In this document: piece by piece, positions 20,141 to 34,235 of the stretch
Layout: each line of letters opens with the position of its first letter
How positions within the stretch are numbered: position 1 is the stretch's first letter
Source of the DNA: Thermoanaerobaculia bacterium
GTDB taxonomy: Bacteria > Acidobacteriota > Thermoanaerobaculia > Multivoradales > Multivoraceae
DNA: 64,000 nt
Assembly (NCBI GenBank): GCA_963666565.1
Contig: OY762911.1
Span: 4,416,001 to 4,480,000 of the forward strand
Reading direction: 5' to 3'
Notes under the pieces: model-generated
The model's input: only the letters and a program-made list of their open reading frames with translations
Told to the model about the DNA's origin: nothing
Database searches by the model: none
Made by a program: the position numbers and the translations under genes

Positions 20141-20320
20141 GTCGGCGGCGGCGTCCGAAGGGGAGGGTCCCAGCGGGCTGGAGCCAAGCGACTGCCCAAG
20201 ACCTCCCCTCGACCACCGATGTAGCGGAGCGCAGGCGACCGAAGCGAACCCCCACCCCACCCTTCCCCAAGCGGGGGTGAGCGTCCGCTGGGACCCTCCC
20301 CTCCGGATGCCGCCGCCGAC
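20141..20320 (+). repeat. long-stem element copy E1 (180 nt; 36-bp terminal inverted repeat)
   Basis: Arms 20141-20176 and 20285-20320 are reverse complements with 2 differences; interior homologous to E2-E4. Confidence 0.9.
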
Positions 20321-20338
20321 GGGTACCCGCTCGAGCCG

Positions 20339-22714
20339 CTACGCCGTCAGGCCGCGGTACACCTTCGGCAACTGGCTCGGCAGGGCCGCGATCTCGTCGA
20401 TGACGAGGTAGCGGCGCTCGGGACACATCTCGCGCAGGTAGTCGTGGCCGGCGGGGTCGACGGTGATGCAGAAGGTGGAGATGCCGGCGCGTTCCGTCTC
20501 GCGGAGCGCCACCGTCGTGTCGCGGATGCCGTGGACTCGGGAGGCGCGGTCGCTGCCGTAGTCGAAGTCCTGGGGGTAGCCGTCCGAGAGGATGAGCAGG
20601 ACCTTGACCTTCGCTTCGCGCTCGGCGAGCCTGGCCGCGGCGTGGCGGATCGCCGGTCCCATCCGGGTGCTGCGCTTCGGCTCCATCGCGGCGATCCGGT
20701 CCTCGGCCTCCCGGTCGAGGTCGTCGTCGAACTCCTTGGCGACGAAGAACTCGACCTCCTTGCGGCCGAAGCCGGAGAAGCCGTAGATCGCGTAGTCGTC
20801 GCCCAGGGTCTCCAGGGCGTCGGCCATCAGAACCAGGGACTCCTTCTCGATGTCGATCACCCGGCGCCCCGGCGGCAGGGGCTGCGGGTTGTCCGGCCAG
20901 TCGAAGTCGTCGAAGACGCCGACGTACTCCGGCTCCGGCTCGCGGCCCGACGCCGCTTCGGGCTCGTCAACCGGCGCTTCCGCGTCGGTCGAGGCGCTCA
21001 TGTCGAGCAGGAACGCCGCCGCCACGTCGCGGTGCTGGCGGCGGCGGCTCATGTACACGGCGCCGTCCGGCGGCCGGCCCGCGCGGCGGTCGACGTGGGT
21101 TTCGACCACCCGGTCGAGGTCGAGTTCCTCGCCCTCGATCAGGCGCCGCACGCGCCGGAACTCCTCCGGCTTGAGCAGCTCGAACTGCTTCCTGACGCGC
21201 CGCAGCAGGTCGGCATGGCGGCGCCTGGTCTCGTCGACGAAGCGGCCGGCCGGCGGCGCGGCGCCGTTCGCGGCGCCCTCCGGGACCGGACCGGGCGGCT
21301 CGATCGCCTTCTCCCGCAGGTGGCACCAGCGCCGGCGATAGCCGGCCAGCTCGTGGTCCCACTCGTCGTAGTAGTAGACCCGCTCCCGGTCGCGGTCGAG
21401 CCCGGCCTCCGCCATCTCGCGTTCCAGCCGCTTCGAGAGCTCCTCCAGGCGGGCCGCCAGCTCCTCCGGATCGAGCTCGACCGGGGGCGCGTCGTCGTCG
21501 CCCGCTTCGGCCTCGATCGCTCCCGTGACGTCGAGGTCGGTCAGCGGCAGCCCGGCCGTTCCCGAGAGATCGCCGTCCTGCAGGCTGAGCACACCGAGTT
21601 CGTCGACCTGCAACTGCTCCATCAGGCCGGCGGCTATCGGGCCCGGTTCCACATCGTCCCGCAGTTCGACCTCGGAGGCGAGTTCCTGCCACTCGCGGCG
21701 CAGTTCGACGCGCTCCGGCGCGGGGTCGCCGTGGTGCGCGGGTGCCGGCACGTCGAGCGACTGCGGTTCGACCTCGGCGTCCGGGTCGGCGCCGCGACCC
21801 GGCTGCCGGCGCTCGTCGACGGCCGCCGCGGAATCGGCCCAGGCAGCGGACGAACGCAAGGCGGCGATCGCGGGATAGAGCGCCCGCACGGCGCGCAGCG
21901 TCTCGTCGACGGTGGCACCCGGACTCAGCAGCGCAGCGGCCTCTTCGAGTCGCGAACCTCCGACCTCCTTCGCGAAACGGTGGCCTCCGCCGCCAACCGC
22001 CTCCCGGCCCGGGCTTCCGGCCCCGGCCTCCACCTGCCCGGAAGTCCCCGCGTAGCCGCGGGAGTCCATGCCTGGTTCAACGCGTCCACTACCGGGAGAC
22101 CGGTGCATTGGCGCCCGGCTCGGCGAACCCCCGTCAGCCCCGTCACCGATCAACCGGGACCGCTGCTCGACGAGCAGCGCCCGGGCCAGGTCGAAGAGGG
22201 CCGCTTCCCGTGGCTTCCGCCGCGCCGGCAGCCTCGACGCCGGGGCCAGCGACGACTCGAGCGCATCCTGGACGAGGCGCAGCAGATCCCGCCGTACCCC
22301 CCGGAACGCCCGAGCCAGCGCGGCATCGATCCGCGCCCCCTCCAGCCGCGCGAACAGCGCTCGGGCAAGGCCCGGCTCGTCGAAACCGGCGAAGAAGTCG
22401 GCGAACCGGACCGGCCCCCGCCGGTAGGTGCCGAACAGGACGCCGCCCAACTGGTGCAACACGGCCATCCGGTAGACCATGAAGTTGCCGTAGCCGTCGG
22501 CGAACCGGTCGATTCGCTCCGGCAGATAGAAGGCCGCGCCGTCCGTCGTCGGCCGACCGGCCGCCGCCGCGCCCTCCAGGTCGAGATGACCGGCGCGCGA
22601 GCGTTCCCCGCCCGAGAGATCGGCAAGCGGCCGGACCTCGGCCGGACGCGCCAGCATCGCCTCGACGTAGATCTCGAGGACCCGCCCGACATCGTCGAGT
22701 TCGACGCCGGTCAA
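20339..22714 (-). CDS. NorD/CbbO-like vWA domain protein
   Basis: [22 protein letters not shown] (MIDAS), [22 protein letters not shown] overlaps the ATPase stop. Confidence 0.88.
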
Positions 22715-23583
22715 GGCAGCAGCGTCGACGCGACCTCGGTCACCGCTCGCTGGACCTCGTCGTCGTCGGTGATCGCCCGGCAGATCGCGGCGACGCAGGC
22801 CTCCCGCACGCCGATGCCGCCCGCGATCAACTGCGCCGTGTAGATCAGCAGCCGCGTGCTGACGCCTTCGTCGAAACCGCGGTGGTGCAGGTTGCGGACG
22901 CGCTTGCCGAGCTCGGCGAGGTCCCGCGCCAGCGTCACGTCGATGCCCGCCTCGTGCGCGATGATCTCGGCCTCGACCTCGGGCGGCGGATAGTCGAACT
23001 CGAGCGCCACGAAGCGCTGGCGCGTGCTCGGCTTCAGATCCTTGGCGACGCTCTGGTAGCCCGGGTTGTACGACAGCACGAGCAGGAAGTCCGGGTGCGC
23101 CGGCAGGACTTCGCCCCGCTTCTCGATCGGCAGGATGCGCCGGTGGTCGGTCAGCGCGTGGATCAGGACCGTGGTGTCCTTGCGCGCCTCGACGATCTCG
23201 TCCAGGTAGCAGATCGACCCGTCGCGCACGGCGCGGGTCAGCGGACCGTCCATCCACACCGTGTCGTCGCCTTCCAGCAGGTAGCGGCCGACCAGGTCGG
23301 TGGCGGTGAGATCCTCGTGGCAGGCGACAGTGACGAGCGGCGTCTCGATGCCGGTACGCGCTCCGGCCTCGCCTCCCCGGTAGAGGCGATGCGTCATGTG
23401 CTCCAGGAACCGCGTCTTGCCGCACCCCGTCGGCCCCTTGAGCAGCACCGGCATCCGCGCCCGGTGGGCGGCGAGGAACAGCTCGACCTCGTTGCCGACC
23501 GGCAGGTAGTAGGGCGCCTCCGGAACGGCCGGCGCCGCGTCCGGGACCGGCCGCGGCGCCGCGGCTTCAAGCGGTTGGGTCAT
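22711..23583 (-). CDS. CbbQ/NirQ/NorQ family AAA+ ATPase
   Basis: [58 protein letters not shown]. Confidence 0.93.
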
Positions 23584-23602
23584 GGACGGCGAACCGGCGT
23601 CG

Positions 23603-32816: not shown

Positions 32817-32852
32817 TGGTGCTCTGGACGCCGCCACGGGACCTTCCTCTCA

Positions 32853-33992
32853 TCAGGGAATCACGGTCACCTTGACCGCCCCGGAACGCTTGTCGCCCGC
32901 GATCTCGAAGGCGCGCTCGATCTCTTCCAACGGCGCCTGGTGGGTGAGCAGACCTTCGTAGGCGGCGCCTCCCGCGGACAGGATTCGCACCGCCTCGGCG
33001 AAGTCCTCCGCGCCTGGACGCCGCGCGTAGCAGTTCGACCACTGAAGCCGCGCCTCCTTGCCCAGGAGCAGCAGTGGATCGAGGGTCAGCGCGCGCAGGA
33101 AGACCCCCAGAACGCAGACCGTGCCGCCGGGCCCCAGCGCGGCGACGGCCGCGGTCATCGTGTCCGCCGTACCGCCGACCGTCTCGACCACCAGGTCGGC
33201 GTCGAAGCCGTCGAGGTCGCCGTCCTCCGCCGCGTCGATTACCTCGTCGGCGCCGAGCCGCCCGGCCAGACGCGCCTGGTGCGGATGACGGGCCGTGACG
33301 GCGACGTGCCCCAGGCCCCAGGCGCGGGCGACCGCGACGACCGCCAAGCCGATCGTACCGGCGCCGAGAACCAGCAGCCGGGCGGCCCGCTTCGGCCGTT
33401 CCGGCCGTTCCGCACCGGCTGCTGACGGTATCGACCTGTTCCCGTCCCCGTCGGGGGCGGGGCTGAACATCCCCGCGCTCCCAGGCGTGAATGCGGACAA
33501 GGCGGGCGCCGTTCCGGGCGCGGCCGACAACCGGAGCCCATGGATCGCTACCGCGAAAGGCTCGGCGAGGGCGGCCAGAGGCGGCGACAGCGTGCCCGGC
33601 GCCCGGTAGAGCCGCCGCGCCGGCACGACCACCGCGTCGGCGAAGCCGCCGGGCCGCCTCAGGCCGTAGAGTTCAAGTTCCCGGCAGATCGAATCGCGGC
33701 CCCTACGGCACGGATCGCAGTCGCCGCACGAAGCGAGCGGCTCGACGACCACCGGCTCGCCGGCGGCGAACCCTTCGACGCCCGGACCCAGCTCGTCGAC
33801 CGTGCCGGCCATCTCGTGGCCCATGATCGAACCCGGCTCGACAATCGGCTTCGGACTGTGGACCATGTGCAGGTCCGTGCCGCACACGCCGCAGGCAGTG
33901 ACGCGAAGCCGGACCTCGCCGGGCCCGGGCGCCGGCAACGGACGCTCGGCCAGGGCGACCTGACCGGGTCCGCTATAGACGCCCGCTCGCAT
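32853..33992 (-). CDS. Zn-dependent alcohol dehydrogenase (MDR) with an internal low-complexity insertion
   Basis: CGVCGTD, GHEMAG, CxxCxxC..C, GAGTIG. Confidence 0.9.
   Translation of the reverse strand: MRAGVYSGPGQVALAERPLPAPGPGEVRLRVTACGVCGTDLHMVHSPKPIVEPGSIMGHEMAGTVDELGPGVEGFAAGEPVVVEPLASCGDCDPCRRGRDSICRELELYGLRRPGGFADAVVVPARRLYRAPGTLSPPLAALAEPFAVAIHGLRLSAAPGTAPALSAFTPGSAGMFSPAPDGDGNRSIPSAAGAERPERPKRAARLLVLGAGTIGLAVVAVARAWGLGHVAVTARHPHQARLAGRLGADEVIDAAEDGDLDGFDADLVVETVGGTADTMTAAVAALGPGGTVCVLGVFLRALTLDPLLLLGKEARLQWSNCYARRPGAEDFAEAVRILSAGGAAYEGLLTHQAPLEEIERAFEIAGDKRSGAVKVTVIP
33446..33484 (-). repeat. GGAG-type REP-like double hairpin inside the ADH insertion
   Basis: Minus strand CTGGGAGC-GCGGGG-ATGTTCAG-CCCCGC-CCCCGACGGGG; same architecture as the GGTG family. 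Confidence 0.55.
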
Positions 33993-34058
33993 CGCACGGA
34001 GCCTAACAACGGACTGTCAGACCGGAGTCCGCCTGACCCGCACCTTCACCGACCTCCA

Positions 34059-34235
34059 GCCCAGTCGGGTCAGGAGGGGTCGGCGCCCAGGTGCCTCTGA
34101 ACGAGCGACTGCCCGCGACATTGCATCCACCGACGTCCAACCGGAGCGAGTGAAGCGGAGCAAGCGCAACCCTGCCCATCTCCTCTCGAGCGCGCGCGTC
34201 ACCTGGGCGCCGACCCCTCCTGACCCAAGACGGGC
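34059..34235 (+). repeat. long-stem element copy E4 (177 nt)
   Basis: Arms 34059-34093 and 34200-34235; preceded by TCCA and followed by GGGT like E1 and E2. Confidence 0.9.

Follow-up and report, generated by a model that had tools for sequence, protein, structure and literature searches.

A Genus-Restricted Family of Hairpin-Forming Intergenic Repeats, Probably Non-Autonomous DNA Elements, in a Thermoanaerobaculia Bacterium and Its Relatives

Introduction

Several hairpin-forming intergenic repeats of bacteria have been described, and those that bear most directly on the present work are the REPINs, ERIC, bcr1 and the tagged REPs. REPINs (Bertels and Rainey 2011, PMC3116915; this paper and the two that follow are cited from parts of their text) are REP doublets that form single-stranded DNA hairpins in which compensatory changes are common, are found together with RAYT transposases, and are excised asymmetrically, leaving a few bases of one end. 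ERIC, the 127-bp enterobacterial repetitive intergenic consensus, and bcr1, a repeat of ~155 bp in the Bacillus cereus group, form a second type (PMC3184786). The GTAG- and CGTC-tagged REPs (Di Nocera et al. 2013, PMC3733652) are palindromes of 20–40 bp with stems of 5–13 bp and loops of 2–20 nucleotides (nt); the CGTC repeats have no known dedicated transposase, and their dimers may fold into larger hairpins. The family described here was noticed as four intergenic hairpins (copies 1–4, in order of position) in a 64,000-nt stretch, hereafter the window, of the genome of a Thermoanaerobaculia bacterium (assembly GCA_963666565.1, contig OY762911.1, positions 4,416,001 to 4,480,000).

The family is read, with a probability of roughly 0.55, as a genus-restricted set of DNA elements that form hairpins, are non-autonomous and belong to the same broad type as REPINs, ERIC and bcr1. 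Its members have short conserved end tags, complementary arms of ~40 nt whose sequence is free, and a core of ~106 nt that is conserved and has two hairpins. New copies have arisen at gene ends, chiefly in gaps of the convergent and tandem kind, where the 3' end abuts the stop codon of a gene on the opposite strand; they have persisted through speciation with the stem paired, and have been lost when the hairpin was deleted, with one-arm remnants left behind.

Family Size and Distribution

The host genome (G000; G001, G003, G004 and so on denote the genomes of relatives) is a single contig of 4,786,144 bases with 70.2% GC. A genome-wide nhmmer profile made from the four window copies returned 91 hits, 87 of them covering at least 120 positions, with E-values of 1e-39 to 1e-44 for the window copies. 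A covariance model (CM), R1, built from the same four copies gave 104 matches in the genome, of which 86 were forward-strand matches at 77 bits or more and the remainder weak reverse-strand echoes or fragments. The original prediction, made from the letters of the window, had pointed to four copies in 14 kb; the copies are real, but they form no local cluster and are rather part of ~86 elements dispersed genome-wide. The search of the genome and its relatives with such a model, which had been proposed as a check, found the family in 38 of 41 same-genus genomes, with copy numbers from zero (three genomes) to at least 57 matches, and gave no match in 15 genomes from 12 other genera of the same family or in 16 genomes of other genera of the order. 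An exact two-motif pattern, searched in one genome per prokaryote species, was found at 45 loci, 44 of them in records of Thermoanaerobaculia, Candidatus Multivorans, Holophagales or Acidobacteria(ota) metagenome-assembled genomes (MAGs), and the CM confirmed all 13 of the tested loci from these Acidobacteriota-type records. A pattern locus in a Gammaproteobacteria MAG (L126) was rejected as a family member, having no CM match.

Rfam, at the gathering score, returned no match in the 64-kb window, and at E ≤ 1, with 20 of the 83 aligned copies as queries, it gave hairpin noise only, the best match being a miRNA precursor with 37.7 bits against a gathering score of 140. This check, also proposed beforehand, therefore matched no family, and no known insertion sequence (IS) ends were matched among those examined. 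Titles and abstracts of the papers found on Thermoanaerobaculia, sponges and repeats held no account of such elements; no wider search for this family was made.

Of the 87 copies, 83 were aligned to the CM, three truncated or interrupted copies and one weak copy being omitted. At 88% identity these fell into one cluster of 17 copies, referred to as the young subfamily, and 66 singletons, and the median identity of a copy to its nearest relative copy was 0.78. The most similar pair (99.5% identical; G000:C1:873623-873810 (-) and 875327-875514 (+)) is inverted, with the 5' ends facing each other 1.5 kb apart, and may have arisen by local transposition or by a small inversion or duplication.

Structure and Covariation

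The unit had been put at ~180 nt; it proved to be ~189 nt long when its end tags are included. Between these tags, CGTCCAG (5') and GCGGGTG (3'), lie the two arms and, enclosed by them, an asymmetric interior of ~106 nt. Conserved flanks extend past the tags (CCGACGA on the left, CnnCCGaCGcCGC on the right), and the unit reaches 210–250 nt when leader and trailer are counted. The fold is a three-way junction, in which a closing stem of ~40 bp is joined by two small inner hairpins, both of them covarying, and the conserved core motifs are AGCGAC, GGAGCG, GACCGAAGCGAGCGC and GAGCGCGAGCG.

That the arms differ between copies and yet stay complementary, as had been claimed for a covarying closing stem, was borne out across the 83 copies: standard pairs occupied 94.6% of cells, compared with 74.7 ± 0.4% in shuffles and 40–50% when the partners were slid as a control, and 44 of 52 pairs had changes on both sides. 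Doubly changed cells numbered 768 against 204.5 ± 12.2 in shuffles, none of 500 shuffles reaching as high. The inner hairpins covary as well, one pair occurring as GC 47, AU 27 and CG 7 and another as GC 65, CG 15 and AU 3. The alignment was fitted to the CM and is biased toward structure, but the slid controls, and an effect this large, make the bias a minor concern. Between copies, identity was 44% in the outer arms, 64% in the core and 81% in the tags, and in the 66 old copies the stem was still 95.2% Watson–Crick. These values, together with the stems kept paired in orthologous copies, agree with the claim that what is conserved is pairing and length, not the sequence of the arms. In the 17-copy young subfamily a variable stretch comes in two or three sub-types; a CRISPR-like variable loop was considered for it and rejected, as so few sub-types fit mosaic exchange and not free variation.

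Pairing Probably Constrained at the DNA Level

Among the 2875 cells of the closing stem, 2693 were Watson–Crick, 39 were G-T, 62 were A-C and 81 were other mismatches, so that G-T was rarer than A-C on the model strand. Helices selected as RNA generally tolerate G-U far better than A-C. One-sided changes were limited to 0–2 at most pairs of the long helix, with a maximum of 6, and many pair swaps were between GC and CG, an alternation that has no wobble intermediate. Frequent G-T and T-G "pairs" occurred only at two conserved positions of the end tags, where they are read as tag sequence and not as pairing.

Copies at the same locus in different species were compared in a CM-aligned set of 16 non-independent comparisons, comprising 10 loci shared with G004 and two loci each with two other relatives. 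Their stem pairs were unchanged in 365 cases, had double Watson–Crick changes in 142 and single changes in 11, and gaps were paired in 26 cases and unpaired in 7; one ortholog triple contained both a compensated substitution and a compensated one-base indel. Since wobble was no commoner than A-C and indels were paired in both arms, the constraint is read as acting on DNA. Of the two readings that the original prediction had offered, a non-autonomous element with a single-stranded DNA or DNA hairpin fits better, and a multicopy structured RNA is not favoured, given the rare wobble and the compensated indels. The stem is probably kept by selection on DNA structure, by templated correction from arm to arm, or by both; such correction is the template switching in quasipalindromes known from the E. 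coli literature.

Placement at Gene Ends

Placement was evaluated against our own gene calls (3653 genes, Pfam-checked within the window). All but one of the 87 copies were intergenic, and 37 lay in convergent, 40 in tandem and 10 in divergent gaps, the background of 1121 gaps longer than 150 nt comprising 192 convergent, 588 tandem and 341 divergent ones. Of 83 copies, 64 had on their 3' side an opposite-strand gene whose 3' end faced them, at a median distance of 27.5 nt and within 40 nt in 44 of the 64, and in tandem gaps the two orientations were found 28 and 10 times (binomial p = 0.005). The model strand is antisense to the abutting gene, and its loops are C-rich and G-poor. No enzyme gene was found next to the copies, in line with the earlier statement that no cognate enzyme is adjacent.

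Gain, Loss and Boundaries

A comparison of orthologous loci, likewise proposed as a check, found empty sites and no target duplication. Copy 3 was missing at the 14 relatives' loci examined, where a spacer of ~19–21 nt lies between two stop codons, and copy 4 was missing at 13 relatives' loci. Copy 2 was missing in three of five relatives (G005, G019 and G014); G004 carries a copy with different arms at this site, and G017 the 3'-arm remnant of such a copy. Two further young copies presented the same filled/empty pattern, and at one of these two sites the relatives have overlapping stop codons or an oppositely oriented REP unit. Flanking direct repeats were no longer than in shuffled pairings (longest shared flank word of 5.77 nt against 5.79 ± 0.11 nt in the 83 copies), and the filled/empty site pairs also lacked a target duplication, which upholds the description of the family as unlike a classical MITE (miniature inverted-repeat transposable element).

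The DNA gained exceeds the hairpin (~245 nt at copy 4). The leaders shared by the 17 young copies are of two types, a whole REP forming part of one, and several of these copies have a common trailer of ~43 nt that ends in the stop codon of the abutting gene. At copy 4 the abutting gene stops at the TAG of the insert, whereas relatives stop at TGA. At another locus (L208, G000:C1:1236600-1238250, element at 718-906) the TAG of the trailer is mutated to CAG, and the minus-strand gene appears to read ~27 codons into the element, to a predicted stop at a TGA in the arm; relatives have a TAG stop there, 11 nt from the stop of the neighbouring gene.

Apparently empty sites in the host genome that are filled in G001, G003 and G004 retain one terminus or one arm, and a motif scan found about ten more remnants of this sort; one-arm and core-deleted forms occur among the remnants. 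The possibility that the 3' tag and its flank represent a pre-existing target was rejected; tag-bearing "empty" sites are better read as one-terminus remnants, because copies 3 and 4 leave no trace in relatives and similar remnants abound. A nested composite, in which one element lies inside the first inner loop of another and replaces most of the outer core, was found three times (G000:C1:3375369-3375700, 1811700-1811973 and 2085900-2086196), and since the three instances share the same upstream REP and tail repeats, the composite itself appears to have been copied.

In the mechanism proposed, the hairpin would matter as DNA, either as a single-stranded or cruciform copying intermediate or as a protein-binding structure, and its pairing would be maintained by selection on DNA structure, quasipalindrome template switching, or both. 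Copying would be carried out by an enzyme supplied in trans, without target duplication and with the ability to carry flanking DNA, including a neighbouring REP.

The Short REP Family and Candidate Partner Enzymes

With up to 3 substitutions allowed, a separate short REP, GCGGGTC[A/G]GAAGACCCGCGCACCCAG, matches the genome at 878 sites, 8 of which lie in the window. Two further small hairpins often precede it, and it occurs as arrays and inverted doublets. At least one REP lies within 150 nt of 34 of the 83 elements, and of the 40 REPs so placed, 38 are co-oriented with the element and 33 are on its 5' side. Scored against the REP, the 5' arms reached 9.14, where mononucleotide shuffles gave 7.76 and the REP's reverse complement 7.28, a weak resemblance confined to the forward orientation; the best alignments share GCAGCGGGTC...CCCAGCGGGC, and the palindrome of the REP itself is not retained. 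In the relative G019 (L213, C36, ~52602-52762), the loop of a REP holds a nested insertion of ~70 nt that itself has two small hairpins, suggesting that the genus has small repeats of a third kind.

The sole Y1/HUH transposase gene of the genome is RAYT-like (G000:C1:748983-749858 (+); L161 1057-1932), with a Pfam Y1_Tnp match at E = 2e-8 and an NCBIfam REP_Tyr_transpos score of 76.7 bits (cut-off 80), and the 3' end of its open reading frame (ORF) reads through an array of short REPs, translated as repeated WVRGSSDPH. A RAYT query matched 24 of 40 same-genus genomes, although fragmented assemblies could conceal some RAYT genes; the three element-free genomes were also without a match, and may form one clade. 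A RAYT-type Y1 transposase is the only named candidate for the mobiliser, on weak evidence.

Other candidates were tried and rejected. An IS200/IS605-derived element (PATE) or TnpB omega-RNA found no support, there being no replication bias, no TnpB domain (PF07282) in the genome, a search for which control genomes gave matches, and no Y1 gene other than the RAYT-like one. A search for an IS91-type Y2 transposase gave no match but was uninformative, as the control matched nowhere either. An IS110-family IS is present in five identical copies of ~1.43 kb (G000:C1 around 347495, 725849, 740466, 804857 and 2464105), with a 379-aa DEDD transposase, subterminal GGTCCGCCCCGC/GCGGGGCGGACC and a non-coding 3' part of ~340 nt; it was rejected as a partner because its ends are unrelated and all five copies sit in REPs, at least four of them at CTGGGT^GCGCGGGTC. 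Its bridge RNA was no better a candidate, the genome-wide CM search giving no match at any of the five IS copies. The suggestion to look for copies flanking a transposase gene was thus followed at the RAYT gene, with none within 1.5 kb in six genomes, and at the IS110-family copies, with none there.

Weighing the Explanations

Several observations weigh against the reading as non-autonomous DNA elements. No replication-strand bias was seen (46 copies lagging against 37 leading, p = 0.38), unlike IS200/IS605, and no precise ends, excision product, or circular or single-stranded intermediate were observed, the public runs consisting of contigs only; in the contigs of four DNA-type runs from a single study, breaks fall at the repeats and no element-less form occurs, which leaves them uninformative on excision and transcription. 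The gene-relative orientation rule, the core motifs and the C-rich loops of one strand also fit a role at the transcript level, and the ratio of G-U to A-C on the gene-sense strand (62 against 39, or 1.6 times) is a weak hint of tolerance at the RNA level. Selection and templated correction are indistinguishable with these data. The similarity between arms and REP is modest and was measured against mononucleotide shuffles only. None of six genomes had a CM match closer than 1.5 kb to its RAYT gene, where the flanking repeats were short REPs, and 13 of the 16 genomes without a match to the RAYT query used here carry elements, including the near-closed assemblies G047 (2 contigs, 40 matches) and G023 (3 contigs, 36 matches).

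The same G-U excess would also fit a cis-acting RNA of the 3' untranslated region, in which the hairpin behind the stop codon would serve as a terminator, an insulator or a block to 3'-exonucleases and the covariation would result from selection on RNA folding, the gene-sense strand being the reverse complement of the model. This explanation is regarded as unlikely, but it would account for the abutment of the stop codon in one fixed orientation (64/83), for the enrichment of convergent gaps (37/87 against 192/1121) and depletion of divergent ones (10/87 against 341/1121), and for the stem retained in old copies; the reverse-strand RNA of copy 4 folds at z = -6.2, and ERIC and REPs behind genes influence mRNA stability (PMC3184786). 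It is confronted by wobble that is scarce on both strands (1.4% and 2.2% of stem cells) and no better tolerated than other mismatches, by paired indels that are hard to obtain from RNA-level selection alone, by the lack of a U-tract after the hairpin in either orientation in the four window copies, and by loops that are G-rich on the gene-sense strand. Moreover, 19 of 83 copies face no gene 3' end on that side, and the presence/absence pattern and remnants represent a turnover typical of mobile DNA. The Watson–Crick-only pairing would also suit a host DNA site, a junction or cruciform bound by a host protein of the nucleoid, topoisomerase or recombinase type, as in BIMEs, with each copy under selection and mobility secondary. 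Conserved core motifs beside outer arms of 44% identity, long-term persistence and vertical inheritance within one genus are consistent with such a site, and BIMEs bind IHF, DNA polymerase I and gyrase (PMC3184786). This account is nevertheless held to be quite improbable: the binding protein is only postulated; same-genus genomes range from no matches, in three of them, to at least 57, so that the element is dispensable; and many sites filled in one species are empty or differently filled in another. Least probable, and largely refuted, is a classical MITE, a deletion derivative of a DDE-transposase IS moved through its terminal inverted repeats. The size, the intergenic siting, the long hairpin and the one recently expanded subfamily of 17 copies resemble a MITE, but target-site duplications are absent, the arm sequence is not conserved, the end tags are not Watson–Crick inverted repeats, their outermost "pairs" being G-T and T-G, the leaders and trailers of the copied unit vary, and the sole multicopy IS examined, the five-copy IS110-family element, has unrelated ends, although the search for a parent IS was not exhaustive.

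The Window Copies and Their Neighbours

The four copies were confirmed at the positions first reported, and their arms stood among the five longest that an inverted-repeat search found in the window. Alignment of the four copies showed their interiors to be homologous and asymmetric, as stated in the original prediction. The flanking motifs were also as described, CCA preceding all four copies and GGGT following three, copy 3 ending in CGCG instead when viewed in its own orientation. Copy 1 occupies 20135..20325 (+; CM R1 176.1 bits), with the tag CGTCCAG, a closing stem of ~40 bp and a core of 108 nt; its arms (20138-20176/20285-20323) are 92% complementary with 108 nt between them, its left flank is a conserved CCGACGC at 20128-20134, and 13 nt past its 3' end an opposite-strand gene (20339-22714) has its stop codon. 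Copy 2 (23994..24183, +; CM 172.6 bits) has arms at 23997-24035/24143-24181 that are 90% complementary with 107 nt between them, and lies in a divergent gap, ending at the start of a luciferase-like monooxygenase gene (24181-25434, Pfam PF00296). A unit of the 878-copy REP family (23940..23986, +; pattern match 23962-23983) is found 7 nt upstream of copy 2, in the same orientation and within the DNA that is missing from relatives there. Copy 3 (32634..32822, -; CM 186.1 bits), which has atypical ends, has arms at 32639-32674/32781-32816 that are 92% complementary with 106 nt between them, and is flanked by convergent genes for an amidase (stop at 32633) and an alcohol dehydrogenase (stop at 32853), both assigned by Pfam.

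Copy 4, a member of the 17-copy young subfamily, occupies 34053..34240 (+; CM 175.2 bits). Its 5' arm (~34059-34093), core (34094-34199) and 3' arm (~34200-34235) were placed on the + strand, and the inverted-repeat search gave arms of 100% complementarity at 34067-34093/34200-34226 with 106 nt between them. The inserted segment, as delimited by the filled/empty site alignment, is 34018..34261 (+; ~245 nt, boundaries within ~3 nt) and in it the hairpin unit is preceded by a 35-nt leader and followed by a 21-nt trailer, the end of which gives the TAG stop of a PDZ-protein gene on the minus strand (34262-35194). Folded as DNA this copy reached z = -6.7, and neither for DNA nor for reverse-strand RNA did any of 200 shuffles fold as well. 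Matches to the short REP in the window are located at 469-616 (-), 8332-8407 (+), 23962-23983 (+), 29887-29908 (+) and 42735-42756 (-). About 2 kb upstream of copy 1, the ORF 16712-18133 (+) encodes a GmrSD restriction endonuclease N-terminal domain (PF03235, E = 1.7e-25), of defence type.

Significance

Whichever way the stem is maintained, the family is an unusually clean natural case of structure conserved at the DNA level while sequence is free. If maintenance is mechanistic, through templated correction, covariation alone is no evidence for a functional RNA, which calls for caution in RNA-motif discovery in GC-rich genomes; if it is selective, a protein reads a DNA or RNA three-way junction at ~86 gene ends. 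A bolder and distinctly tentative reading, considered unlikely as it stands, sees in the family long-lived replicators or structural elements that are inherited vertically in a sponge-associated acidobacterial genus, in which a 40-bp hairpin would stay in place throughout species divergence while the arms drift to saturation, by templated correction between the arms during single-strand copying or by recognition of the three-way-junction core by a non-RAYT protein, and which would insert at stop codons with a stop of their own. Should this reading hold, the family would be REPIN-like but with a partner enzyme that is new, and with a harmless siting at gene ends built in. Annotators of sponge-type Acidobacteriota can trace many contig breaks, some altered stops and some extended C-termini to this family and the 878-copy REP.

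Comparison with Known Systems

The statement in the original prediction that the family could be assigned to none known holds for Rfam, but was too strong, since hairpins with compensatory changes have been described for REPINs, bcr1 and ERIC (PMC3116915, PMC3184786). With ERIC and bcr1 the family shares its size, imperfect palindromes in tens to hundreds of copies, often behind genes, co-transcribed in the case of ERIC and bcr1, and a presence that varies between related genomes, and with bcr1 a fold kept by compensatory base changes (PMC3184786). It is set apart by description from the ERIC type and bcr1, which end in terminal inverted repeats and duplicate their target (as a TA motif or 5-bp direct repeats), features not found here, and whose covariation is ascribed to the RNA level, whereas here it is Watson–Crick only (PMC3184786). 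Tagged REPs likewise have an unpaired tag at one end of the palindrome (here 5'-CGTCCAG) and lie downstream of ORFs, between convergent or unidirectional genes, but fall short in size, being ten times smaller than the present elements of 189 nt with a ~40-bp stem and a structured interior of 106 nt (PMC3733652). The CGTC-like tag occupies alignment columns 1–4 in most copies, and its likeness to the CGTC of the tagged REPs is by letters only. In the attC sites of integrons, structure rather than sequence is conserved, and the site is recognised as folded single-stranded DNA. The present elements lie outside cassette arrays and differ in size and fold, so that attC would offer a functional analogy only.

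The likeness to REPINs extends to a non-autonomous intergenic hairpin with conserved ends and variable complementary sequence, the lack of target duplication, asymmetric excision, long persistence, mostly vertical inheritance and a genome with one RAYT gene (PMC3116915), and the REPIN feature of a single-stranded DNA hairpin with compensatory changes is found here as well. The arms, however, are only weakly REP-like and have lost the palindrome of their own, the element of ~189 nt contains a structured 106-nt core with two covarying hairpins instead of a free spacer, the repeats on the flanks of the RAYT gene are those of the short 878-copy REP and not of the hairpin family, and many genomes carry the family without a detectable RAYT. 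Because the inverted REPs and the REP-flanked RAYT of REPINs are not cleanly matched, the family is filed as a hairpin-forming intergenic repeat outside the named families.

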